From the NCBI GenBank assembly GCA_963805625.1, contig CAWDVE010000010.1:1056001-1120000 (forward strand): a stretch of DNA of 64,000 bases, written 5' to 3'. The position numbers were made by a program, and so were the translations under genes. The first letter of the stretch is position 1. Each line of letters begins with the position of its first letter. Positions 17,122-28,444 of the stretch are shown piece after piece. The notes below the pieces were generated by a model. The model was not told where the DNA came from. It ran no database searches and worked only from the letters and a program-made list of their open reading frames with translations. This DNA is from an uncultured Candidatus Rokubacteria bacterium. GTDB taxonomy: Bacteria; Methylomirabilota; Methylomirabilia; Rokubacteriales; DASRDR01.

Positions 17122-18033
17122 ATGACCAAAGGTGAGATCGGATTCGTGGGGCTCGGCCGGATGGGGCTCCCCATGGCCCGGAACCTGGCCGCGGCCGGCT
17201 ACCGCGTCCACGTCCACGACGTCGCCCTGCCGGCGATGGAGCGCGCGGCTCGAGCGGCGGGGGTCGTGCCCCACGCCTCGGCCGGCGAGGTTGCGGGCGC
17301 GTCGGCCGTCGTGTTCACGGCCCTCCCGAACGATGCCATCGTGCGGGAGACCTACCTCGGCCCGGCGGGCCTCCTCGCCGGGGGTCGCCCCGGCCTCGTG
17401 ACCTGCGACTGCTCCACCGTTAGCCCCGGCGCCACGCTGGAGGTCCACCAGGCGGCGAAGGCCCGCGGGATCCATCACCTCGACACGCCGATGCTGGGGT
17501 CGTCGCCCCAGGCCGAGTCGGGCGAAATCTTCTTTATGGTCGGGGGTGACGCGGCGCAGATGCCGGTGATCCAGCCACTCCTCGACGTGATGGGGCGCCT
17601 CACCATGCACGTCGGGCCGGCGGGCACTGGCAACCGGATCAAGCTCCTCCACAACGCGCTGGGCGCGGTGAACGCGGTCGCGGTGGCCGAGTCGCTCGCG
17701 CTGTGCGACGCGGTCGGCGTCGACCCGCGGACCTACTACCAGGTGGTGAAGAACGGCGGCGGCATGGCCTACTCGACCTACTTCGACCGGCGGGTGCTGC
17801 GGGTGGTCGACGGGAACTACGACCCCACATTCACGCTCGATCTGATGCTCAAGGACGTGACCCTCGCCAGCGAGATGGCCGGGGACCTCCTCTCTAAGCT
17901 GCCGATCCTCCGCGAGACGCTGGCGGCGTACGCGGAGGGTCAGCGGCGCGGTGCCGGGCCGGAGGACTTCTCGGCGGTCACCCACGTCCTCGAGGGCCGC
18001 CTCGGCCACCGCCTCTTCGAATCCACGCCCTGA
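17122..18033 (+). CDS. NAD(P)-dependent oxidoreductase, 3-hydroxyisobutyrate dehydrogenase family
   Basis: GFVGLGRMG.PMA.NL, DCSTV, KLLHN, F.L.LMLKD motifs. Confidence 0.9.
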   Translation: MTKGEIGFVGLGRMGLPMARNLAAAGYRVHVHDVALPAMERAARAAGVVPHASAGEVAGASAVVFTALPNDAIVRETYLGPAGLLAGGRPGLVTCDCSTVSPGATLEVHQAAKARGIHHLDTPMLGSSPQAESGEIFFMVGGDAAQMPVIQPLLDVMGRLTMHVGPAGTGNRIKLLHNALGAVNAVAVAESLALCDAVGVDPRTYYQVVKNGGGMAYSTYFDRRVLRVVDGNYDPTFTLDLMLKDVTLASEMAGDLLSKLPILRETLAAYAEGQRRGAGPEDFSAVTHVLEGRLGHRLFESTP

Positions 18034-18045
18034 TTTCAAACTCCG

Positions 18046-18233
18046 GGGTCAGACCCCGATTTTGGCGTTCGGCACCGAGGTATCCAGTCTCACACTTGGG
18101 GGCCTGACCCCGGTTTTGGTTTCCCTCGGGGTCAGGCCTTGACTTCCCTACACTTCCCGACGCAACGCGAGATGCATGGAAATCAATTGCCTGACCCCGA
18201 GCGAGCCTCGATCAACGCCGGCGCTTCCGTATC
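18046..18233. repeat. Direct repeat copy A (about 190 bp; two REP-like hairpins plus a gene-end segment)
   Basis: Aligns by eye to 18736-18924 with scattered mismatches and indels. Contains GGGGTCAGACCCC...GGGGCCTGACCCC and GGGGTCAGGCCTTGACTTCC...GGAAATCAATTGCCTGACCCC. Confidence 0.92.
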
Positions 18234-18613
18234 ATCGCCGGCGTGACCGAGCTTGTGATGCCCACTCCGAGGCTCACCTCGAAGAGGGCGTTGCGTGCCG
18301 CGGACTGCTCGGCCACACCCGCGACGGTCTTCTGGTCCTCCGTAACCGCGATGAACCTGCCGTTGGCGTCGGGCCCGACGCGCTGGCCGCTGGTCACGGC
18401 GTCGCCGGCGAGGCATCTGTACGTGCCGATCACGCCGATGTTGCCCGAGTCCCCGTCACGGATGTCCTCGAGCGCCACGCCGTAGAGCACGTCGGTGTCT
18501 GCGGCGCAGGGCGCGATCCCGCCATCCGCGGAGAGCTTCACGGCGAAGCCCTGCTTGATTGTGGAGCCCGTCGTGTTCTTCTTCCGCTGCGTCAGGACCA
18601 GGAACTCTGCCAT
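18212..18613 (-). CDS. Phage capsid cement/decoration protein-like (DUF2190-like)
   Basis: 133 aa, Gly/Ala/Val-rich beta pattern (VLYGVALED...AGDAVTSGQRVGPDANGRFI...VAGVA) typical of DUF2190. AGGAG RBS. Confidence 0.7.
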   Translation of the reverse strand: MAEFLVLTQRKKNTTGSTIKQGFAVKLSADGGIAPCAADTDVLYGVALEDIRDGDSGNIGVIGTYRCLAGDAVTSGQRVGPDANGRFIAVTEDQKTVAGVAEQSAARNALFEVSLGVGITSSVTPAMIRKRRR

Positions 18614-18655
18614 GGTGGTTTCTCCTGTTTGCTCCGGGAGTTAGCGGCGCACGCC

Positions 18656-18735
18656 TCAGTGGGCCGCGCTCAGGTTCACGAAGGGCCCCTCGCGCTTCGC
18701 CTCACACGCGAGCTCGAAGACGGTGTCGTAGTCGA
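18656..18735 (-). pseudogene. 3' end of a truncated gene, possibly a phage protease/scaffold
   Basis: LDYDTVFELACEAKREGPFVNLSAAH* is cut off at repeat copy B and lies immediately upstream of the cement-like gene. Confidence 0.35.
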
Positions 18736-18924
18736 GGGTCAGACCCTGATTTTGGCGTTCGGCACCGAGGTATCCAGTCTCAAACTCGGGGTCTAGCCCC
18801 GGTTTTGGTTTCCCTCGGGGTCGGCCTTGACTTCCGTACACTTCGCGACACGCGACGCGAGATGCATGGAAATCAACGCCTGACCCCGAGCCGGGGCTTC
18901 GATCAGCGCAGGCGATTCCGCATC
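18736..18924. repeat. Direct repeat copy B
   Basis: Homologous to 18046-18233 at an offset of about 690 bp. Includes the last codons of the 176-aa gene. Confidence 0.92.
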
Positions 18925-19433
18925 GACACGTCGGCTTGTGACACAACCTGGGAACGGAACTGTTCCTGAGAGCGGAACTGTTCCTGGGATCTCGACGCCG
19001 AGGAGAACGTCGCCTCGATCAGGATGTCGTTGAGTGTCCCGGAGCAGGGGTCCAGCCGCAGCAACACGTCATCCTTGTCGTAGTCCCAAAACATGACCCC
19101 CGTCTCCCAGAAGACGTTCCGTGCGACCAGGCCGGTTTCGTCCATCGTGGACGGGCCATGGGCCACGGTCCCGGCTATGGCGTTCGTGACAGGAGTCCCG
19201 TCACCGTGCACGAGGAAGATGGCCGGTCTCGGCAGGTTGTAGAAGCTGCCCTCGAAGGTGAAGGCGTAGATCCGAGCCAGCTTCGGCTTGTCAGAGCCGG
19301 CGAACTTGAGCTGTTTGAGGAGGAAGCCGCTATCGCCCTTACCCGTCCCATACGACGACGAGCTCAGCGTCACGTCGTCCAGCTTTCGACCATACAGCTT
19401 GACACTCGATTCGCTCAGTAGGGTCTCTGCCAT
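18903..19433 (-). CDS. Hypothetical 176-aa protein with C-terminal tandem RSQEQF repeats; candidate YcaO/TfuA substrate or precursor
   Basis: GGAGG RBS; last gene of the YcaO-TfuA operon; 18-bp tandem repeat at 18948-18992. Confidence 0.8.
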   Translation of the reverse strand: MAETLLSESSVKLYGRKLDDVTLSSSSYGTGKGDSGFLLKQLKFAGSDKPKLARIYAFTFEGSFYNLPRPAIFLVHGDGTPVTNAIAGTVAHGPSTMDETGLVARNVFWETGVMFWDYDKDDVLLRLDPCSGTLNDILIEATFSSASRSQEQFRSQEQFRSQVVSQADVSMRNRLR

Positions 19434-19469
19434 GTCACACCTCCCTCAGCGTGTCCGCGATTGTGTCGG

Positions 19470-20744
19470 TCAGGGTGATCGCACAATTCCACCGCGGTCG
19501 CGGCGCGATGGGGCGAGCGACCTGGCGATGGGGCCGGGCCGAATCTCGCGCCAGGCGAAGCTCTCCCAGATGAGCCGCGCGAACCTGCCTCCCGTCAGGT
19601 AGCGGTCAACAGCTAACAATGCGTCGAGGACGTCAAAGTAATTGAGGTAGAGCGGCGACAGCCGTCGCCATACGTGCGCGAGCCCAGTTCCGAGATAGTC
19701 ACGCGTCTGCTGGAGCACCACCTTAAACGCTTCATGCCGGCCGTCGTAGGCAGCGGCGAACCGAGCCTCGATCTCTGGGTCGTCCACGGTGACTCCCGAG
19801 ACCCGGCCCGACGCGCGGTCCAGGTCGGCGCCGATGAGCCCAGCGTCGACGAGGAACTGCTGGTACACGTCAACGAAGATGTCGAAGATGGCACCCGTCA
19901 GCGGCTGAGACAGATCGTGGAGCGCGCACGAGATGTTCTCGACTCTGGAGACGTCTTCCACGTCAGACATGCACAGATCGTTGTCGGCGATCCGGATCTG
20001 GGCGGTCTCCGACAGTTCGCCGATACGGTTCAGCTCGCTCAGGTAATAGAGGTTGCCGGCGGAGCGTCGGAGAACGTGATCGAGCACCGCATGAAAGTGC
20101 AGGCATCCCACAAGGGCAACCAGGTCGGCGAAAGACTCGTGAAAACCGAAGAATTGATCGGTCCGAGCGTCCGGCGGGGGGGTTCCGACTTCCGAATAGA
20201 TCAGGAGGTGCCCCACCTCGTGGGCGAGCACGTCGAAGTTCTGCCAGTGGAGGCGCGGCACACCTCGCTCGTCCAGAGCATATCCAACCTCGATGAAGCC
20301 GAACCCGGACTGGGCATTCGCCCAGTCGATGTAGGGTATGAGCTCGAGGCGATTGTGGGTTCGTCGGAAATGCCACTCGATCCGGTGGCCAGCGTAGGCC
20401 TCCCAGATGTCCAGGACGCGCCGAACCGTCGCGTACATGTGTGCGGACCGGAATTCGGGACTGTCGACCTCCAGATGGTCGAAGTGCCCATCCGGGCCGG
20501 ACAAGGTGGGCGGAAAGGCGGGGCCGACGTATGGCGGCAAGTAGGGGAAATCGTAGGGACCGGGCTTTCCGATCGCGTCGACCACGTACATGCGCTCATC
20601 GGCGGGACCCGGCGCGATCGTCCCCGGTGCTCGAGCGATCCACACCCTCTCCGGCTCACGGAACGCCGCGAGCGCAGGGTCTTGCGCGAATAGCCAGAAT
20701 CGGGTGCCGCGTCCGAGGGTGATCGGGTCCCAGTGAGAGGTCAC
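19470..20744 (-). CDS. Zinc metallopeptidase, gluzincin (M4/M36-like), no evident signal peptide
   Basis: NA, DVLAHEVGH (HExxH), downstream FHESFAD (ExxxD), and a later H..S...TGA.FD segment. Confidence 0.8.
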   Translation of the reverse strand: MTSHWDPITLGRGTRFWLFAQDPALAAFREPERVWIARAPGTIAPGPADERMYVVDAIGKPGPYDFPYLPPYVGPAFPPTLSGPDGHFDHLEVDSPEFRSAHMYATVRRVLDIWEAYAGHRIEWHFRRTHNRLELIPYIDWANAQSGFGFIEVGYALDERGVPRLHWQNFDVLAHEVGHLLIYSEVGTPPPDARTDQFFGFHESFADLVALVGCLHFHAVLDHVLRRSAGNLYYLSELNRIGELSETAQIRIADNDLCMSDVEDVSRVENISCALHDLSQPLTGAIFDIFVDVYQQFLVDAGLIGADLDRASGRVSGVTVDDPEIEARFAAAYDGRHEAFKVVLQQTRDYLGTGLAHVWRRLSPLYLNYFDVLDALLAVDRYLTGGRFARLIWESFAWREIRPGPIARSLAPSRRDRGGIVRSP

Positions 20745-20747
20745 GCC

Positions 20748-22124
20748 TCACTCCTCGGGGTTGCGCGTGATACCGTCGGGCGTGTCGCCCCGCGTCACGT
20801 GGATCCATTCACGCCAGAGCGCCCGGTAGAACGACCCCGTGTCGGGGAAGCCGATGTCCACCGCGTGCTGCGCGATGTCATCGGGTACCGGGACGCCGAG
20901 GCGTTTCTCGAAGTACCAGAGCGTCAGCTCGAACTTCGTGCGCTCGTCGAGCTGATCCTCGACGGGGTCCGCTCCGGCCCGCGCGCGCCGCTTCATCCGA
21001 GCCCGCGCCGCGTAGCGCGTGTAGTCACCCCGGACGCGGAGATCATCCAGGAGATGGGCCTCGGCTCGTGGTCGGGCCAGCGCCTCCAGCTGCTCGATCC
21101 GCGCCTCCTCGTCGATCAGCCGGCCAAAGCTGGCGGGCGTGAGGTCGTTCTCTGCCAACCAGCGGTCGAGCGCTCCGCCGCCGAACAGGCCTAGGCGGCG
21201 CCGCAGTCTCGCAGCCGCCCGACGCCGAGCCTCATCGCTGGGCGCGAGCCCCTCCGACTCGCACTCTCGCAGCGTCGCCATCCGCATCAACCCCGCCCGT
21301 CTGGCCTCCACGTAGGCCCGGCCGTCCAGACGAAGCTCGTCGAGCAGCATTTCTGGCTCGAGCTCCAGTCGCTCGAAGTCCTGGGTGGCCCGGTTCCACA
21401 TCGCGCTCGCCTGGAACACGTATTCGACCCGAGCCGGCGGAGGATCGCCGACGAGAAAGTCCCTCATGGTCGTCAACATGGCAAGCGCGTCCAGCCGCTT
21501 CTGGTTGATAGACCCAGTCGGTAGCCAAGCGCGAAGCGCGTCGAGGTCCGTGACCGCGAGACCATGCTTGGCGCCGCAGGCCAGAAGCCGCTGGTACGAA
21601 CGATCGGGATAGAAGAGCTCCTTCGCGAGCCGGACGAGCATATCCCGGATGGTCGCCGAGACGACCCCCGCCTCCTGGGCTGATGCTAGCGTGCATCGGA
21701 TGTTGACCATGGCTTCGGAGAGGGGAACGAAGCCAACCTCGGCCGCACCGTGAACCACTGCGACCTCGTCGTCGTCTTCGAACGCCTCTGCCTGATAGGG
21801 CGCGAGGCTCCCGTCGCGATAGGCCTCGAAGATCCGGCCTATCCCCTTCATGCCGAATGCCGCGAGCTCGGCCGCTCGCAGAGCACCCATGCTTGCGCTC
21901 CCGAAGACATGGACACCCTGGGCCATCGCCCACAGAATTTCCTTGTGCCAGACGGATGGAACCTGCTGGAAATAGCCGTCGATGATGCCCAGGGCACGAG
22001 GTCGATGATGCGCGACCGCCCGATACACGTCTCCCTGCTGCGCCGGAGGCAGATAGACGGCATCCAGCACAGACCTCGCATCCGATACAGGGAGCGTGGG
22101 TCCGGTGAATACGCAGGTCGTCAT
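20748..22124 (-). CDS. tfuA: TfuA-like protein with C-terminal helical extension
   Basis: VFTGPT, PPAQQGD, IDGYF...SVWHKEIL, GSASMGALRAAEL, EDDDEVAV.H, LSEAMVNIR, QKRLDA. Overlaps the YcaO stop (ATGA). Confidence 0.93.
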   Translation of the reverse strand: MTTCVFTGPTLPVSDARSVLDAVYLPPAQQGDVYRAVAHHRPRALGIIDGYFQQVPSVWHKEILWAMAQGVHVFGSASMGALRAAELAAFGMKGIGRIFEAYRDGSLAPYQAEAFEDDDEVAVVHGAAEVGFVPLSEAMVNIRCTLASAQEAGVVSATIRDMLVRLAKELFYPDRSYQRLLACGAKHGLAVTDLDALRAWLPTGSINQKRLDALAMLTTMRDFLVGDPPPARVEYVFQASAMWNRATQDFERLELEPEMLLDELRLDGRAYVEARRAGLMRMATLRECESEGLAPSDEARRRAAARLRRRLGLFGGGALDRWLAENDLTPASFGRLIDEEARIEQLEALARPRAEAHLLDDLRVRGDYTRYAARARMKRRARAGADPVEDQLDERTKFELTLWYFEKRLGVPVPDDIAQHAVDIGFPDTGSFYRALWREWIHVTRGDTPDGITRNPEE

Positions 22125-23473
22125 GCCAGCCGACCACTCACGGCGCGGGCCCGCGGCCCTGGCACGTACTTGCCGCGCTCGCCGTCGTCGAGTCCCTCCA
22201 GGCCGGGGATTAGGACCCGAACGACCGGTATGCCCAGCTCCGGCTTGGTCAAGTTCACCGCGACGACTTGCCGAATCCCCACGGCGCGGAGATGTTCCAG
22301 AGCCCAGGTCACATCCTCGTCGAGACTATCCTGGTCGCGAGTGGGCACGTCGTGAAAGTCGCCGGTGGCCGTGTCGGCCGCCATCAGGCTGCGACATTCC
22401 TTCAGGCGTCGAGCGCGCTGCGCCGGCGTGTAGTCCTCTGCCCAGAAGTCGTCGCGGGAGCCAGCGATGTAGGTGGTGCGAGCCTGAGCGGCCTCGGTCA
22501 GCGCGCGGAGCAGAGCGATACCGCGCGCGGGATGGCAGCCGGCGGCGAACTCAGGGTCGGCGCCATCGTCGTCCCGCCCGAGCACCAGGCAGGTGAATGA
22601 CGCGATGCCGACATCGGAGGTGGTGTCCCACACCTTCACGGCAATGTCGGCGCGCGCGAACTGGTCGAGCACCCAGCGACATGCGTCGTCGTTGACAGTC
22701 TCGAGGTCCAGCGCGCGCCGTGACCTCCGGGGCGTGTGCTTCCACAACGCGCTCGCGTCGCGCTCGATCACCTCGTGTATCCCATGGCTGATGGCTTCGA
22801 GCATGTGGTTGCCTGATGCGAGCCCGTTCGTGTTAGCGAGAAAGCACCCGTGCGCGGGGCCACGAGGCATCGTGTAGTCCGTATGCACTAATTCGTATGG
22901 CACCCAGCACGGAGACTGGCTGATGAGATCTTCGCCCTCGATCCACAACAATGGCTCATCGTCGGTATAGGAGCTCGTCTTGGCGCGTGGGAGTGCGGCC
23001 ACGTCGATCAGGGGATGAGTGCGCCCGAGCTCGCGATACGTCCCTAGCTTGAGAGAGGAGGTGATGGTCTCGGCGTGAAAAGTCTCGACCGCTTCCATCA
23101 GCCCGGATGCCTTGGCCGCGGCCAGGTCCAGACCCTTGCCTTGGGACACGGCGATGGAACGAGAGTTCGGTCGGCAGACCATGACAACCGGGACACCGAT
23201 CCGATCGAGGCCGGTGATGTTGGCGACGCGGGTTATGCCCATCTGGGAGGCAAGCGGCCCGATTCGTTTCAGCGTATCCGCCGGGGCCACCGTTCGGTGG
23301 GTCCCGAGACGATGGGCCTTGACGGCTTCAGCGGTCGGTGTCGCGGCAGTTGAGCAGCCCCCTCCGAAGTGACCGGTCCCGTCCCCCTCCGCGCGCTGGG
23401 CACCACGAACGGCAGTCGTGGACGACCGGGGCAGGCCCGCTGCGGACTGGGGGCTCAAGTCAGGATCGTCCAT
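22121..23473 (-). CDS. ycaO: YcaO-like protein (TfuA-associated, thioamide-forming type)
   Basis: GITRVANITGLDRIG, SQGKG, ASGLMEAVE, NTNGLASGN, EVIERDA, RALTEAAQAR..IAGSRDD, VVRVLIPGLE. Start uncertain (ATG 23473). Confidence 0.93.
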   Translation of the reverse strand: MDDPDLSPQSAAGLPRSSTTAVRGAQRAEGDGTGHFGGGCSTAATPTAEAVKAHRLGTHRTVAPADTLKRIGPLASQMGITRVANITGLDRIGVPVVMVCRPNSRSIAVSQGKGLDLAAAKASGLMEAVETFHAETITSSLKLGTYRELGRTHPLIDVAALPRAKTSSYTDDEPLLWIEGEDLISQSPCWVPYELVHTDYTMPRGPAHGCFLANTNGLASGNHMLEAISHGIHEVIERDASALWKHTPRRSRRALDLETVNDDACRWVLDQFARADIAVKVWDTTSDVGIASFTCLVLGRDDDGADPEFAAGCHPARGIALLRALTEAAQARTTYIAGSRDDFWAEDYTPAQRARRLKECRSLMAADTATGDFHDVPTRDQDSLDEDVTWALEHLRAVGIRQVVAVNLTKPELGIPVVRVLIPGLEGLDDGERGKYVPGPRARAVSGRLA

Positions 23474-23486
23474 TGCGCCCCGCTCA

Positions 23487-26400
23487 CTAGGAGGTCGTCC
23501 CGGGTGCGGGAGTGGGAGCCAGCTCTTCAAGCAGCGCGCGTGCCTCGAGTAGGTCGACCGTGTCGAAACCCTCCCGGAACCACTCATAGACGGGGACCAG
23601 CAACCCACGTGCAGCAGCGTGTCGATCTCGTCGACGCTCGAGCATAGCCAGACTCATGGCCGCTCTCAGTTCGAGCGCTCGGGCCTTCTGCTGGCAGGCA
23701 ACTGACAGAGCCCTACGGAACTCGGCTTCCGCCTCGCTGACCCGCGGAGGCGACAACGCCAGGAGGGCCTCCCCTCGGCTCCGGTGGAGCTCCGCAGTCC
23801 AGTAGCACAGCCCCATCTGTTCCGTCTCGGCGAAAGCCTCGTCGAGCATGTCCAAGGCCAGCTCCGGCTGGCCTGCCTTGACGCACGCGGTGGCGAGCAT
23901 CTCCCTCAGGATCGGGAAGTCCTCGCCAGTGACCATGGCCTTCAGCTCGTCGAGTCCTTGACGCATATATTCGATGCCGCGCTCGGGCTCGCCCAGCTCG
24001 GCCAGCGCCCAGCCCTGGAACACCGTGCCCTTGACCCGATAGGCCGGGAATCCGTGGGCCTCCGAGTACTGGATGAGCTCATCGGCGCGGCCCTGGACGG
24101 TCCAGGCGTCGCGGCGATAGCGGTGCAGTAGCAGGCTCATGTCGAGCGCGTGTACGAGCGAGCCCGCATGCGCGAGACGGCGCGCCCACACCATCGCCTC
24201 CCCGCCCGCCGCGAGCGCCTGATCCGGGAACCCGAGCAGCCACAGCGAGAACGCGCGCTCCCCCGCCCCGCACACCTTCGGGTCGTGCCCGCCGTAGACC
24301 GCCACGTGGGCGCGGTAGTTTCCGGCGTCATACAGGCGCACGCCCTCGCGGACGTGCTCACAGCACTCTTCGTGCCGGCCCAGGTGGAACAGACTGGCCC
24401 AGAGACAGTGGTGGGCTTGAAGACTGAGGCCAGGGTCGCCCAGCCCGTCGGCCAGTGTCAGCAGTTTCTGCCCTATCTCGAGTCCCGTCTCGAAGCGTTC
24501 GGAGATACGCCATGCACCCCACATCGCGGTGAAGTGCTGGGGGGAGTCGGGGAGAGAAGAACAAAGCTCCAAGGCCCGGGCATAGGTCTGCGCCACCTCG
24601 ATCGTCCGCGGCCCTTTCGTGTTGATGAGCACGGGGCCCAGCGTGAGGAGCAGGTCGAGCTCCCCCCGTCGACGTTCGGTCGTTTCAGGAAGAGTGGCGA
24701 GGAGATCCAGCCCCTTCTTCAGGTGGGAGATCGCCTCCACGTTCGCTGACCGCTCACTCGCGCGTCGTCCGGCCAAGTGCCGATAGTGGAGTGCCTTCGG
24801 ACCGAGATGGGCCTCCGTGCAATGATGCGCGACCAGTTCAGGGCTCGCCTCCAGCGTCTCCGGAAACTGGGTCTCCAGCACCTCGGCGATCCGCGCATGG
24901 AGCGCCTGGCGCTGGGTGAGCAGGAGGCTTCCGTAGGCCGCGTCCTGGACGAGCGCGTGCTTGAACGAGTAGGTCGCACGGGGCGCTGTACCGTCGCACA
25001 GTATGAGCTGCGCGTCGACGAGCTCGTCGAGCGCCGCGTCCAGCTCGGTGTCTGGCATAGACGCTACCGCGGTTAGCAGCTCGTACGAGAATTGGCGTCC
25101 GATCGCGCTCCCGATCTGGGCAACCTTCGGGCCGGAAGCGAGCTGGTCAAGGCGCGCCATTAGTGAATCGTGGAGCGTCGCCGGGATCGCGAGAGGCGGA
25201 ATGGCGCCGGTGAGCTCGTACCGGTCTTCGTGTTCCTGGACCAGCCCGGATTCGAGCACCGTCTTCGTCAGCTCCTCGATGAATAGCGGCACGCCGTCCG
25301 TCTTGGTGACGATGTGCTGCAGGATCTGCTCGGGCAGGGACTTTCCGTTGGCCACCCGCCGCGCGATCTCGGCCGCTTCCGTCGGACTCAGCCGGTTCAA
25401 GGTGCAGCGCGTGACATGGGGCTGCCTGGGCCATTTTGGCGCGTAGCTCGGTCGGCAGGTGATGACCGCCAGCATCCGCTGGCTCCCGGCACGCTCCACG
25501 AGGACATCGAGCCACTCCTGCGAGGTGGGGTCGATCCAGTGCACGTCCTCGAACACCAGGAGCAAACCCGGCTCCTTGGCGAGACCCTCGACCAGGCTCT
25601 GAAGTGCGGCCAGTGTCTGTTCTCGTCGACGCTGCTGCGTCACGCCGACTGGCGCATAGCGATCTCCCGTCGAGACAGAGACGAGAGGGGCGAGCAACGG
25701 GACCATCGTCTCAACAGGGTGGCCGCACTGAGCAAGCAGCGCCTCGAGCCTCGCCAGCTTCCGCTCCATCGAGTCCTCACGCTCGAACTCGGCGAGGCGT
25801 TCCAATGCGGTACCGAGCGGGTAGAGTGCACTGTTTGCGTGATGTGGCGAACACTGGAGCAAGACGACTCGCTGCGGCTCTTGCGCGATCTGCTCTCCGA
25901 GATTCTGGATGATTCGAGACTTTCCGATCCCCGGCTCGCCGCTCAGCAGCACCACTTGCCCCTGACCGCTCATGGCATCGTTCCATCGCCGCATGAGAAG
26001 ACCGAATTCTTCCTTCCGGCCGACGAGCGGCGTGAGGCCGGCAGGGTGCGCGGCTTCGAATCGGCTCAGGGTCTCGTTCAGGTGCATGACCCGCCAAACC
26101 CGAATCGGGCGGGACATGCCCTTCAGGGTAGCGAAGCCAAGGTCCTCGCATACGAATCGGTCCCCGACCAGATGACGTGTTTCGTCGGTGATTACCACGG
26201 CGTTCGGGTCCGCCGCGGCCTGCAGGCGCGCCGCGAGATTCAGGGTCTCCCCGACCAGACCGGCCTCCTCCCCCGGGCGCCCGCCAGGAGAATCACCCGC
26301 GACCACCAAACCCGTCGCGATTCCCACGCGAACCGCCAGCTGGATGTTCGCAGCACCGATCGGCACCGGCCGAAGCTCCCTCACGGCTTCCACGATCCCA

Positions 26401-26876
26401 AGACCCGCCCGCACGGCACGCTCAGCATCATCTTCGTGCGCCATCGGATACCCGAAGTTCGCGAGAATGCCGTCACCGAGATACTGTGCGACGTGACCAC
26501 CAAACCGCCGGACTACGGAGGAGCAGGTGGTCAAATAGGTTCGGATGAGCCCCCGGAGGTCCTCTGGATCCAACTGGCCCGATATGGAAGTGGACCCGAC
26601 AAGGTCGGCAAACAGGACGGTCACACGTCTTCGCTCGGCCTGACGCGCCCCTGGGGAGACGCTGCGTGGATTCTGGGTAGCCGTGGACGGCGACCGATCC
26701 GGGGGCATGGGTGAGCCAAGGCCGTGAGCGAGCACGGCGCCACATTCCCCGCAGAACTCGAAGTGCGTTGGGTTCTTGAAGCCGCAGGCGGGACATGCGT
26801 TCCTCAGCAGCCGGCCACACCCGCCACAGAACCTCGACGAATCCGGATTGTCGAACGCACAGGCGGCGCACTTCAA
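23487..26876 (-). CDS. Double zinc ribbon + class III adenylate/guanylate cyclase + AAA/STAND-type ATPase + TPR-like protein
   Basis: Four CxxC pairs; FADLVGST, YLGDG, VRVGIATG, NLAARLQ; Walker A GEPGIGKS; Walker B FEDVHW; helical C-terminus. TTG start at 26876 after AAGGGGG. Confidence 0.92.
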   Translation of the reverse strand: MKCAACAFDNPDSSRFCGGCGRLLRNACPACGFKNPTHFEFCGECGAVLAHGLGSPMPPDRSPSTATQNPRSVSPGARQAERRRVTVLFADLVGSTSISGQLDPEDLRGLIRTYLTTCSSVVRRFGGHVAQYLGDGILANFGYPMAHEDDAERAVRAGLGIVEAVRELRPVPIGAANIQLAVRVGIATGLVVAGDSPGGRPGEEAGLVGETLNLAARLQAAADPNAVVITDETRHLVGDRFVCEDLGFATLKGMSRPIRVWRVMHLNETLSRFEAAHPAGLTPLVGRKEEFGLLMRRWNDAMSGQGQVVLLSGEPGIGKSRIIQNLGEQIAQEPQRVVLLQCSPHHANSALYPLGTALERLAEFEREDSMERKLARLEALLAQCGHPVETMVPLLAPLVSVSTGDRYAPVGVTQQRRREQTLAALQSLVEGLAKEPGLLLVFEDVHWIDPTSQEWLDVLVERAGSQRMLAVITCRPSYAPKWPRQPHVTRCTLNRLSPTEAAEIARRVANGKSLPEQILQHIVTKTDGVPLFIEELTKTVLESGLVQEHEDRYELTGAIPPLAIPATLHDSLMARLDQLASGPKVAQIGSAIGRQFSYELLTAVASMPDTELDAALDELVDAQLILCDGTAPRATYSFKHALVQDAAYGSLLLTQRQALHARIAEVLETQFPETLEASPELVAHHCTEAHLGPKALHYRHLAGRRASERSANVEAISHLKKGLDLLATLPETTERRRGELDLLLTLGPVLINTKGPRTIEVAQTYARALELCSSLPDSPQHFTAMWGAWRISERFETGLEIGQKLLTLADGLGDPGLSLQAHHCLWASLFHLGRHEECCEHVREGVRLYDAGNYRAHVAVYGGHDPKVCGAGERAFSLWLLGFPDQALAAGGEAMVWARRLAHAGSLVHALDMSLLLHRYRRDAWTVQGRADELIQYSEAHGFPAYRVKGTVFQGWALAELGEPERGIEYMRQGLDELKAMVTGEDFPILREMLATACVKAGQPELALDMLDEAFAETEQMGLCYWTAELHRSRGEALLALSPPRVSEAEAEFRRALSVACQQKARALELRAAMSLAMLERRRDRHAAARGLLVPVYEWFREGFDTVDLLEARALLEELAPTPAPGTTS

Positions 26877-26924
26877 GCCGAACCCCCTTCTTCGGGCAGC
26901 CGGCCTACTGAGGAGGTGGCGGTG

Positions 26925-26953
26925 ACAGTAAGGCAGCCACGGCAGCTTGTCAA
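26925..26953 (-). promoter_or_regulatory. sigma70-type promoter of the cyclase-YcaO-TfuA operon
   Basis: Minus strand reads TTGACA-17 nt-TACTGT, about 50 nt upstream of the TTG start. Confidence 0.65.
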
Positions 26954-27043
26954 GTCGACGTCTCACTATCGTCGCACGTTCCCATCGCCGTTTGGGATCA
27001 ATGGTGTCACGTCGACCCCGAAGACTGATGCGACTGCGACCGA

Positions 27044-27057
27044 TGATTCATGAATCA
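27044..27057. promoter_or_regulatory. Perfect 14-bp palindrome TGATTCATGAATCA, putative operator
   Basis: AT-rich perfect palindrome about 90 bp upstream of the -35 box. Confidence 0.4.
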
Positions 27058-27121
27058 AAAAGGCCTCCAATGCGATCCCTGCTCATCCCAGCAATCCGCC
27101 GCGCCAAGCCCCAGCGTATGA

Positions 27122-27140
27122 AAGTCAAAGTCTGACCCCC
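27122..27140. repeat. Single arm of the REP-like element (AAGTCAAAGTCTGACCCC)
   Basis: Matches the right arm of the 28495-28579 element. Encodes the GVRL* end of the M48-like gene. Confidence 0.75.
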
Positions 27141-28444
27141 ATCCGCTCGATGCGGGCGAGACGGCGCTTGAGCGTGGGGTGTAGGCCCATGAGTAGGCCC
27201 TCGCGCTCGGTGAACGTCCCGCGCTGGGCCCGCTGCCCGGTGGTCTCCACGATGAAAAGGTGCGCGACCCCCTCGCCGCCCGGGATCACCGCGCCGGTCT
27301 CTCCCAGGTGCTGGAGCCCGCGATAGAGCCCAGTCGGGTTGCGGGTGAGCTGGACCGCCGTCGCGTCGGCGAGGTAGCGCCGGCTCCGCCAGAGCAGGCC
27401 CACCGGTAGGCTCGCGAACAGTAGGAGGAAGCCCGTGGCGGCCGTGGCGAAGGCGAGCAGCGCGAGGAGCGGCGGGCAGATGCGGACGAGGATGCTCCCC
27501 AGCCGGCCGAAGTACTCGCGACCGAGTCCTGCCACCGGGTCGTCCCCGCCGCCCCCGGCCCCGAAGCGCTGCCGGTGCTCTCTGAGAAGCTGGATCAGCG
27601 CTCGGGCCCGTTCGGCCCGCGACTCCGGCGACTGGAATGTGCTCCGCAAGGGAAACGTGAACCACCGCCAGGCGACCCGCCGCGGAAGCCGCGCGAACGG
27701 AGCCAGGATGACGACGATCAGAAGCTCGAGCACATAGAGGAGCGAGTGAATCTGGGCCGCGCCTCGGAGATCCCCGTTCCCAATCGAGCCGATCAGATGA
27801 GCGAGGAGGCCCTCGGTCTCCTCGCGATCGAACTCGTCCAGGAGCCGCCGGCCGACGACGACGTAGCTCTCCGTCAGGTCCGTCCCGACGGCCGCGGCGT
27901 TCGCCACCTTGGCGTCGAGGAGACGCACCTCGGGTGCCGGGATCCCGGCGGCGATCGCCATCTCCTGGACCACGTTGACGAGCTGACGCTCCTCCAGGTC
28001 CCCGGCCACAGGTGGTCGGGCGCCGATCGCGAGGAGAGTGTGCCCCACCCCTGCCGCGCGCCACACCGACCGCACCGTCAGCCAGCACACGAGCGGGAGG
28101 AGGAAGCCGATCACCCAGACCGCGTCGCCGTCGCCCGGCAGGAGGCTCGGCAGCCGGCCCACGACCCCGAGCGGGGCCAGGCCCACGTCCCAGCTGGGGT
28201 GCGCGAGACCGGCTGTCGCAGGGCTCAGGAGCGCGAGCGCGCCGATGCCGAGGCAGAGCACCGCGGGAATGAAGACGAGGGCGAAGAGGACCAGGAACAC
28301 GTTGGCGACGAAGCCCACCGCGGACACGAAGCCGCACCCGCCCACGACCAGCGCGTAGGCGAGCGTCAGACGCCACGTCGCCCGGCGGTTCCGGGCCTGG
28401 AACTCGAAGAAAGGCGTGCGCTCGGTCGGGCGGGTCTCGGCCAT
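27125..28444 (-). CDS. M48/HtpX-like membrane protein with degenerate HExxH
   Basis: FFEFQARNRRAT, L.NVVQEMAIAAG, NAAAVG, EGLLAHLIGSIGNGD, YLADATAVQLTRNP, HP....RL. Confidence 0.82.
   Translation of the reverse strand: MAETRPTERTPFFEFQARNRRATWRLTLAYALVVGGCGFVSAVGFVANVFLVLFALVFIPAVLCLGIGALALLSPATAGLAHPSWDVGLAPLGVVGRLPSLLPGDGDAVWVIGFLLPLVCWLTVRSVWRAAGVGHTLLAIGARPPVAGDLEERQLVNVVQEMAIAAGIPAPEVRLLDAKVANAAAVGTDLTESYVVVGRRLLDEFDREETEGLLAHLIGSIGNGDLRGAAQIHSLLYVLELLIVVILAPFARLPRRVAWRWFTFPLRSTFQSPESRAERARALIQLLREHRQRFGAGGGGDDPVAGLGREYFGRLGSILVRICPPLLALLAFATAATGFLLLFASLPVGLLWRSRRYLADATAVQLTRNPTGLYRGLQHLGETGAVIPGGEGVAHLFIVETTGQRAQRGTFTEREGLLMGLHPTLKRRLARIERMGVRL

Follow-up and report, generated by a model that had tools for sequence, protein, structure and literature searches.

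Backbone thioamidation of a repeat-bearing precursor is known from thiovarsolin biosynthesis in Streptomyces varsoviensis, for which the sections of PMC6511847 on the var cluster describe a precursor with one to five imperfect repeats (VarA) that is converted with the YcaO protein VarY and the TfuA protein VarT into short linear thioamidated peptides. Here, a 64,000-nucleotide stretch of the genome of an uncultured Candidatus Rokubacteria bacterium was analysed (GCA_963805625.1, contig CAWDVE010000010.1, positions 1,056,001 to 1,120,000; hereafter the window), in which a YcaO-TfuA pair is encoded together with a sensor cyclase, a zinc metallopeptidase and a 176-aa protein ending in a repeat tail. 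By analogy, this five-gene cassette would work like thiovarsolin biosynthesis. We lean slightly towards reading the 176-aa protein as a multi-core thioamide precursor resembling those of peptides made by the ribosome and modified after translation (RiPPs), with its own protease and coupled to a TPR sensor and a cyclic nucleotide (cNMP) output.

Two further described systems resemble parts of the cassette. The methanogen McrA thioglycine system supplied the closest solved YcaO and TfuA relatives (6PE3 and 6XP8), and its substrate is likewise protein-sized according to the relevant part of PMC5589413. In the clusters of thiazole/oxazole-modified microcins (TOMMs) recognised by TIGR03903, a cyclase-ATPase-TPR protein stands by a YcaO pathway whose NHLP-type precursors carry a protein-like leader, as given in the portion of PMC2887384 on these clusters.

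Layout and conservation of the cassette

All five genes lie on the minus strand and follow the transcription order cyclase-STAND-TPR protein, YcaO, TfuA, peptidase and 176-aa protein (all coordinates are window positions):

26925..26953, minus strand: sigma70-like promoter candidate, TTGACA-N17-TACTGT (sequence; function only putative)
23487..26876, minus strand: sensor cyclase, 1129 aa from TTG (Pfam, NCBIfam, residue checks)
22121..23473, minus strand: YcaO of the TfuA-associated type (PF02624, 276 bits)
20748..22124, minus strand: TfuA with a C-terminal extension of ~230 aa (PF07812, 153 bits)
19470..20744, minus strand: zinc metallopeptidase of thermolysin/M36 fold (gluzincin), 424 aa (invariant motif, model, Foldseek)
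18903..19433, minus strand: putative precursor, 176 aa, folded domain and repeat tail (family alignment, model, tail statistics)

All five open reading frames (ORFs) described in an earlier note on this DNA, which was made from the sequence alone, were confirmed at their places, co-oriented and closely spaced. The cyclase stop (23487) is 13 nt from the YcaO ATG (23473), YcaO and TfuA overlap by 4 nt in an ATGA at 22121-22124, the TfuA stop (20748) is followed after 3 nt by the peptidase GTG (20744), and 36 nt separate the peptidase stop (19470) from the small-gene ATG (19433). For the cyclase, the most likely start codon is TTG 26876, which is preceded by a purine-rich site, and not the GTG at 26966. 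The promoter named in the same note is present as a sequence at 26953-26925, but its -10 box is weak (3/6 matching) and a promoter scanner makes no call there; the stretch bearing it is ~81% conserved in two relatives (L134 and L002). A visibly lower GC content had also been claimed. The cassette has a GC fraction of 0.654, compared to 0.722 and 0.721 in its flanks and a contig mean of 0.686, a dip that is real but modest because 8% of 274 8-kb contig windows are equally low. No Rfam family was found within 17900-27300.

Co-occurrence was examined in a GTDB survey seeded on the small protein (best 80 of 229 stretches), in which 60 of the 80 loci had full flanks, i.e., at least 9 kb upstream and at least 5 kb downstream. 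Among these 60, the peptidase was found in 57, a cyclase in 58 (in 57 within 1.5 kb), and YcaO and TfuA in 42 each, while a cyclase or a TolB-like/TPR protein was nearby in all 60. The chance adjacency of a cyclase was estimated at a few percent from the 41 cyclase ORFs in the 7.27 Mb of the window's own genome, with related loci being non-independent. The order ycaO-tfuA-peptidase-small gene was fixed in most loci, and gene order was unchanged in metagenome loci (80 of 323 examined). In a reverse test, a peptidase profile was run against a random draw of 400 genomes from a single class, together with the centre genome, and 12 of the 401 matched. At all 10 strong hits outside the centre genome the small gene lay directly downstream (two being distant members), accompanied by TfuA at 10, YcaO at nine and a cyclase at eight; at one peptidase-seeded locus the contig stops 40 nt past the small gene, and an eleventh, weak hit is located where its contig ends and allows no judgement. 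These surveys confirmed that the window carries one copy of a cassette that is real, widespread, conserved and uncharacterised. Its constant core is the small protein, the peptidase and the TPR sensor, with YcaO and TfuA being optional.

The small gene is patchily distributed among the kin of the host, with 2/60 relatives and 2/250 phylum genomes carrying it, and a search of viral contigs gave no relatives. Cultured carriers include strains of Ruegeria, Leisingera, Skermanella and Rhizobium, and in one Rhizobium genome all five genes are present in a second, complete set (L090) with a distant small protein. Among recurring neighbours, a Crp-type gene was present in nine of the 80 GTDB loci, in seven of them less than 600 nt from a core gene, and GNAT genes recurred in two neighbour clusters (16 and 12 loci). 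Other rhizobial YcaO-TfuA loci (L092:5269-9737, L091, L094 and L095) adjoin a SARP-like TPR regulator of 610-660 aa, and in L092 a different protein, 120 aa long and with a twice-repeated segment at its C-terminus, is encoded upstream of ycaO. Such loci may represent a parallel family of sensor plus repeat precursor; TPR and SARP genes are listed in such clusters in Figs S1 and S3 of PMC8120280.

The small protein and its candidate maturation enzymes

The small-protein family comprised 602 clusters at 50% identity and had no Pfam or NCBIfam family. In the window protein, residues ~1-148 are conserved and predicted to be folded (~145 aa), whereas residues 149-169 are predicted to be disordered, with a predicted local distance difference test score (pLDDT) <50. 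The tail reads RSQEQF-RSQEQF-RSQVVS, with RSQ at residues 148, 154 and 160. The best hit in a fold search with the N-terminal domain was T4 gp31 (GroES-like; Z 3.5, rmsd 7.6, 91 aligned), Foldseek returned nothing at E 0.001 or better, and no match was obtained among the sequences of solved structures. Atlas hits scored below 0.9 and serve only as leads. That no clear structural relative turned up is no proof of a new fold.

Tail statistics were based on 345 family sequences, of which 8 had no anchor motif, leaving 312 unique tails. Tandem repeats were detected in 254 of these 312 vs. 34 of 1560 shuffles. The units were highly varied: 129 distinct ones were counted, in 2-10 copies and with a period of mostly 5, 6, 7 or 8 residues, none containing Cys, 109 containing Gly and 101 containing Ser or Thr. 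The repeats are homogenised inside each protein, yet they differ between close relatives; at one shared chromosomal site the tail is RSQEQF in the window, RSGAAF in L131 and RSGLVA/RSGMAA in L096. Identity of the N-terminal domain was 53-55% in three relatives whose enzymes keep 72-90%. These patterns support a tail that behaves like multi-copy core peptides. The proposal of the earlier note that the 176-aa protein is the substrate gains from this likeness, and the protein is the only conserved candidate.

The family also contains divergent forms. A distant 383-aa member (L229:6857-8005) ends in ~22 copies of the hexapeptide MASRAA and stands in a complete STAND cyclase-YcaO-TfuA-peptidase cassette. 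Many members (P0200-P0295) are 260-410 aa long with large insertions in the N-terminal domain, one of which is visible in the alignment of P0037. In the window's own genome, an orphan 3' small-gene fragment with ~5 RSDLAA-type repeats (G000:C21:330374-330640, L099) has no cassette enzymes nearby and is probably a remnant.

The window YcaO is the only one found in its genome. It was placed by bit-score ranking against solved structures, in which the archaeal thioamide-forming MJ1094 (6PE3) was best at 118 bits, compared to 77, 74 and 71 bits for the azoline-forming LynD, TruD and MusD. TfuA aligned with the methanogen structure 6XP8 at 125 bits, and its residues S78 and K209, which we take to be the catalytic Ser/Lys pair, are invariant across 35 cassette TfuAs. 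Both enzymes score above their Pfam cut-offs and share conserved motifs with 6PE3 and 6XP8. Its C-terminal extension matched nothing in searches and was detectable in 51/80 GTDB loci, vs. 57/80 for the TfuA domain. Six ThiS-family genes are located elsewhere in the genome. Single ORFs matching both YcaO and TfuA (L057:1173-4001, L225:8327-10909 and L074:5772-8414) could be fusions or frame artefacts.

The 424-aa protein had been called a gluzincin in the earlier note, and this assignment was borne out. Residues H175, E176, H179, E203, D207 and H276, i.e., the HExxH motif and the downstream Glu among them, are invariant, and the predicted structure (pLDDT 88.6) was matched by Foldseek to M36 fungalysin and thermolysin (E 5e-6 to 7e-6, probability 1.0; M36, M4). 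The protein had no Pfam or NCBIfam family and fell outside Pfam M4 and M36. No hydrophobic signal segment was found in it or in the other cassette proteins, and on its model it is a predicted cytoplasmic gluzincin. A distant paralog (E 2.6e-12) is encoded elsewhere in the same genome (G000:C10:2139879-2141405).

The cassette combines the features by which YcaO-TfuA RiPP loci are recognised, namely adjacent intact ycaO and tfuA genes and a co-encoded precursor with a conserved leader and a variable repeated core, but its leader is protein-sized, unlike known ones. As in thiovarsolin biosynthesis, the YcaO-TfuA pair adjoins a repeat precursor of variable copy number. It differs in the ~145-aa folded domain of the precursor, for which no family match was found, in its 129 unit types, in the near-obligatory TPR sensor/cyclase and in the absence of a VarO-like gene from the recurring neighbours. 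A dedicated gluzincin is also present, whereas the account of the var cluster in PMC6511847 gives no specific protease.

Membership in the other described systems was rejected. Thioamitides of the thioviridamide type are made from a short precursor by clusters with genes for a LanD-type decarboxylase and a kinase/dehydratase. None of those genes occurred among the five or their recurring neighbours, in line with the absence of LanD and kinase reported earlier, and the tail units have no Cys. The methanogen-specific models (TIGR03266 / NF033432) scored under their cut-offs (251.9 vs. 365 and 206.5 vs. 235.2), and McrA (PF02249) had no match in the genome although controls did score, in agreement with the earlier statement that no MCR is present. 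The cassette further differs from the McrA system in its extended TfuA and in a window repeat without Gly. The TOMM kinase/cyclase clusters were set aside since the cyclase scored 582.7 bits with TIGR03903 (cut-off 705.75) and has no Ser/Thr kinase domain, the YcaO scored 135 with TIGR03604 (cut-off 219) and is of the TfuA type rather than a cyclodehydratase fusion, and the small protein has neither an NHLP nor any other NCBIfam match, nor Cys in its units.

The sensor and the competing explanations

Pfam recognised a double zinc ribbon (DZR), a class III cyclase domain (Guanylate_cyc) and an AAA_16 domain (Walker A at 313) in the cyclase, the STAND-type AAA_16 ATPase being followed by a helical, TPR-like C-terminus. 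In class III cyclases two Asp residues bind metal, and an Asn and an Arg serve the transition state. The window protein keeps D91, D135, N213 and R217, with Q131 where Lys is usual, and judged from these residues it is probably active as a class III nucleotidyl cyclase. The catalytic D, D, N and R were retained in 14/14 STAND-type cyclases and in 55-58 of 60 others, while the base-specifying position (Gln in the window cyclase) varies across the family. The STAND form made up 14 of the 70 nearest cyclases.

In midpoint-rooted FastTree trees that included unlinked cyclases from four genomes, the window-like STAND cyclases clustered together and apart from 15/16 paralogs of their own genome. A set of 39 cyclase-TolB-like-TPR proteins of ~590 aa formed a clade that excluded all 19 unlinked cyclases tested, and 16 rhizobial cassette cyclases nested among unlinked ones. 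In the two full-flank loci without a cyclase, a TolB-like/TPR protein adjoins the small gene (E 1e-91 to 1e-95), and its head is probably SARP-like and DNA-binding. The TPR sensor of the cassette has been recruited repeatedly, from three cyclase lineages and one non-cyclase regulator. The zinc-ribbon/STAND cyclase singled out earlier as the sensor is present here, but it is one of these three lineages, and two loci use the non-cyclase TPR regulator in its place. As separate observations, the window's genome holds another STAND cyclase that nests in the cassette-linked clade and has no cassette genes nearby (G000:C7:43372-46749), and its 7.27 Mb contain 41 ORFs for class III cyclases as well as 17 cNMP-binding matches, which points to an unusually rich cyclic-nucleotide network.

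In the course of events that we infer, the repeat tail would be the substrate of YcaO and TfuA, which would convert its backbone amides to thioamides. Free short peptides would then be cut from it by the thermolysin-fold peptidase, and the TPR-bearing cyclase would provide the link to a signal in the form of cAMP or cGMP, for which Crp-type proteins would be the readers. The sensor would either switch the cassette on or read the cassette product as its ligand.

Covariation between the cassette proteins was assessed by partial Mantel tests in two lineages independent of each other, with 35 and 18 loci, and in a 27-locus subset. The tail tracked the peptidase (partial r 0.19, p 0.04, and 0.46, p 0.003). 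It also tracked YcaO in the TPR-type lineage (0.22, p 0.023; 0.31, p 0.006, in the 27-locus subset), with a value of 0.09 in the other lineage that was not significant. The partners tracked by the folded domain were the catalytic domain of the cyclase (0.27 and 0.33, p 0.003) and the TPR region (0.13, p 0.053, and 0.46, p 0.003), joined in the STAND lineage by the peptidase (0.33). This weak but consistent split favours the tail as an enzyme substrate and keeps alive an explanation in which the small protein itself is a switch, as discussed below. It points to a sensor that may engage the folded domain of the small protein rather than read a peptide sequence. A complex predicted for the TPR-type cyclase and the small protein of L009 (49-row alignments) scored 0.00, which is neither support nor counter-evidence.

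Several observations weigh against a multi-core thioamide precursor with a coupled sensor. The Mantel tests themselves are weak, include no correction for multiple testing and have co-inheritance as a confounder. Between the tail and the TPR domain no covariation was seen (partial r -0.06, 0.04 and -0.23), which argues against a sequence-specific peptide receptor, and the tail did not track the cyclase either; matching of the released peptide sequence to the TPR domain was thus left unsupported. The co-occurrence of all five genes expected in the earlier note was widespread but incomplete, with YcaO and TfuA missing from 18/60 full-flank loci (15 rhizobial; three also without the peptidase), and therefore thioamidation is not essential to the module. 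The 15 rhizobial loci consist of cyclase, peptidase and small gene, and tail repeats persist there; among five such genomes, four have TfuA elsewhere and one, a Mesorhizobium, had no TfuA match anywhere. The peptidase-seeded locus L230 has neither YcaO nor a sensor within ~8 kb. No exporter recurs among the neighbour clusters and no cassette protein has a signal segment, both of which are awkward for an extracellular peptide. No repeat was detectable in 58/312 tails, the leader of ~145 residues with its invariant residues exceeds what a leader needs, and Crp-like sites were not convincingly enriched (8 vs. 3.4 expected; 2 vs. 3.2).

A bolder form of the thioamide-precursor reading, which we hold only tentatively, is a Gram-negative signalling circuit of a new type. 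A diversifying repeat code would be thioamidated and clipped, and the processed product would be read by a TPR sensor with exchangeable output, giving a cNMP or transcriptional response. The RRNPP systems of Firmicutes have a comparable layout, in which a TPR sensor whose output domain is exchangeable is encoded beside a fast-diversifying peptide precursor. The cassette differs from them in having no export signal or recurring transporter, in an output that is mostly a cyclase and in the absent covariation of tail and TPR domain. If this circuit exists, thioamidation would be a signalling mark, not antibiotic chemistry.

It is rather unlikely, but deserves most attention among the rivals, that the small protein acts as a protein switch. 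Its folded domain would bind and control the TPR sensor/cyclase within the cell, thioamidation would protect or mark the tail, and proteolysis of the tail would flip the switch, peptides being by-products. The covariation of the folded domain with the cyclase catalytic domain and the TPR region would be expected under this explanation, but may stem from co-inheritance alone. The constancy of small protein, peptidase and sensor beside an optional YcaO-TfuA pair agrees with it, as do the cytoplasmic location predicted for all cassette proteins and the lack of a recurring exporter. However, one and the same domain would need to be bound by three unrelated cyclase lineages as well as by a non-cyclase regulator, and 129 homogenised units, repeated up to 10 times (~22 times in one distant member), seem excessive for a cleavage tag.

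We consider it improbable that YcaO and TfuA act on another substrate (a housekeeping or other cassette protein), or form azolines or amidines at Ser/Thr, leaving the repeat protein as a substrate of the peptidase only. The persistence of repeats in the 15 rhizobial loci that lost YcaO and TfuA, the Ser or Thr in 101/129 units and the modification of a whole protein by the methanogen enzymes (in the relevant part of PMC5589413) would fit such a role. Against these stand the fixed ycaO-tfuA-peptidase-small order in most loci, the tracking of YcaO by the tail in the TPR-type lineage, the absence of McrA from the genome and of Cys from every unit, and an intact TfuA beside a YcaO nearer to thioamide- than to azoline-forming structures.

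Phage or conflict sensing, suggested in the earlier note, was not upheld, and an anti-phage system, with infection detected by the STAND cyclase and with the modified peptide or the protease as its effector, appears highly improbable. The STAND-TPR architecture in the window, the patchy distribution and the fast evolution of the small protein relative to its enzymes would suit it. PADLOC, however, gave only a PycC cyclase-domain match among six window proteins, and Pycsar or other known anti-phage membership was rejected on this domain-level match and the lack of an effector match among the window genes. Applied to 110 proteins encoded near the cassette in about two dozen loci, PADLOC gave 11 hits, of which those named by NCBIfam are Crp or FtsK and the rest look like shared ATPase/enzyme domains. 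The flanks mostly hold housekeeping genes, no viral copies were found, and the STAND form is the minority form among the nearest cyclases. A phage-like gene does follow the cassette in the window, between two repeats:

18736..18890, strand not assigned: 155-nt direct repeat, copy 2 (local insertion, outside the conserved cassette)
18212..18613, minus strand: phage cement protein-like gene (PF09956, 39.6 bits, cut-off 24)
18046..18201, strand not assigned: 155-nt direct repeat, copy 1 (repeat comparison)

The two 155-nt copies flanking the cement-like gene are 90.5% identical, are the only two in the genome and had no Rfam match. The closest relative, L130, which also has an RSQEQF tail, keeps an intact, diverged cement copy (79% nucleotide identity), and the gene is absent at the corresponding site of L131 and L096. 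With 0/80 GTDB loci and 1/80 metagenome loci carrying it, the cement gene was rejected as a sixth cassette member and regarded as a lineage-specific passenger.

In NLR-amyloid pairs, a motif is common to a STAND sensor and the adjacent small protein. Least probable of all is a structural tail, i.e., a beta-solenoid or amyloid-like polymer nucleated by, or signalling to, the STAND/TPR protein, for although many of the pentamer units look similar to pentapeptide repeats (three family members match PF00805) and some Gly/Ser/Tyr-rich tails look aggregation-prone by inspection, the period ranges from 5 to 8 among close relatives, single-copy tails exist, the tail is disordered in the model, and tail-like 5-mers shared per 100 residues were not in excess in cognate cyclases (0.232 vs. 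0.248 in non-cognate ones, 70 loci), on which NLR-amyloid membership was rejected.

Earlier records of the cassette and significance

No characterised pathway with this layout was found in the open-access literature (subscription journals lay outside the search), as the earlier note had surmised, and the same search turned up no account of the family of precursors, of the peptidase or of the coupling to a sensor. The cassette has probably been recorded before: the Rhizobium TfuA-YcaO family in Fig. S4 of Malit et al. (2021; PMC8120280) lists an AAA family ATPase, YcaO, TfuA and two hypothetical proteins, the same order as in the window and in the distant Rhizobium copy L090, the comparison being of listed order alone. 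In that figure both hypothetical proteins are left uninterpreted and a separate short peptide is called the precursor. Cyclases near YcaO clusters are mentioned in passing in the relevant parts of PMC8939145, PMC2887384 (a large kinase) and PMC8120280 (Figs S13 and S22). By analogy, what would be new here is a multi-core YcaO-TfuA type with a protein-sized precursor, a dedicated protease and a TPR sensor, thiovarsolin-type chemistry being already known.

Most TfuA clusters are proteobacterial, while the characterised products are actinobacterial, as stated in the portion of Malit et al. (PMC8120280) on their distribution. The family described here provides a concrete substrate candidate for a large set of orphan proteobacterial YcaO-TfuA clusters, whose protein-sized precursor has probably been missed by short-peptide finders. 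It can be tested now because it occurs in the cultured Ruegeria, Leisingera, Skermanella and Rhizobium. A single enzyme set accepting more than 100 different cores would help the production of thioamide peptides, and, if the link to the sensor holds, the cassette would offer a candidate for the input of some of the numerous cyclases with TPRs in rhizobia and roseobacters.

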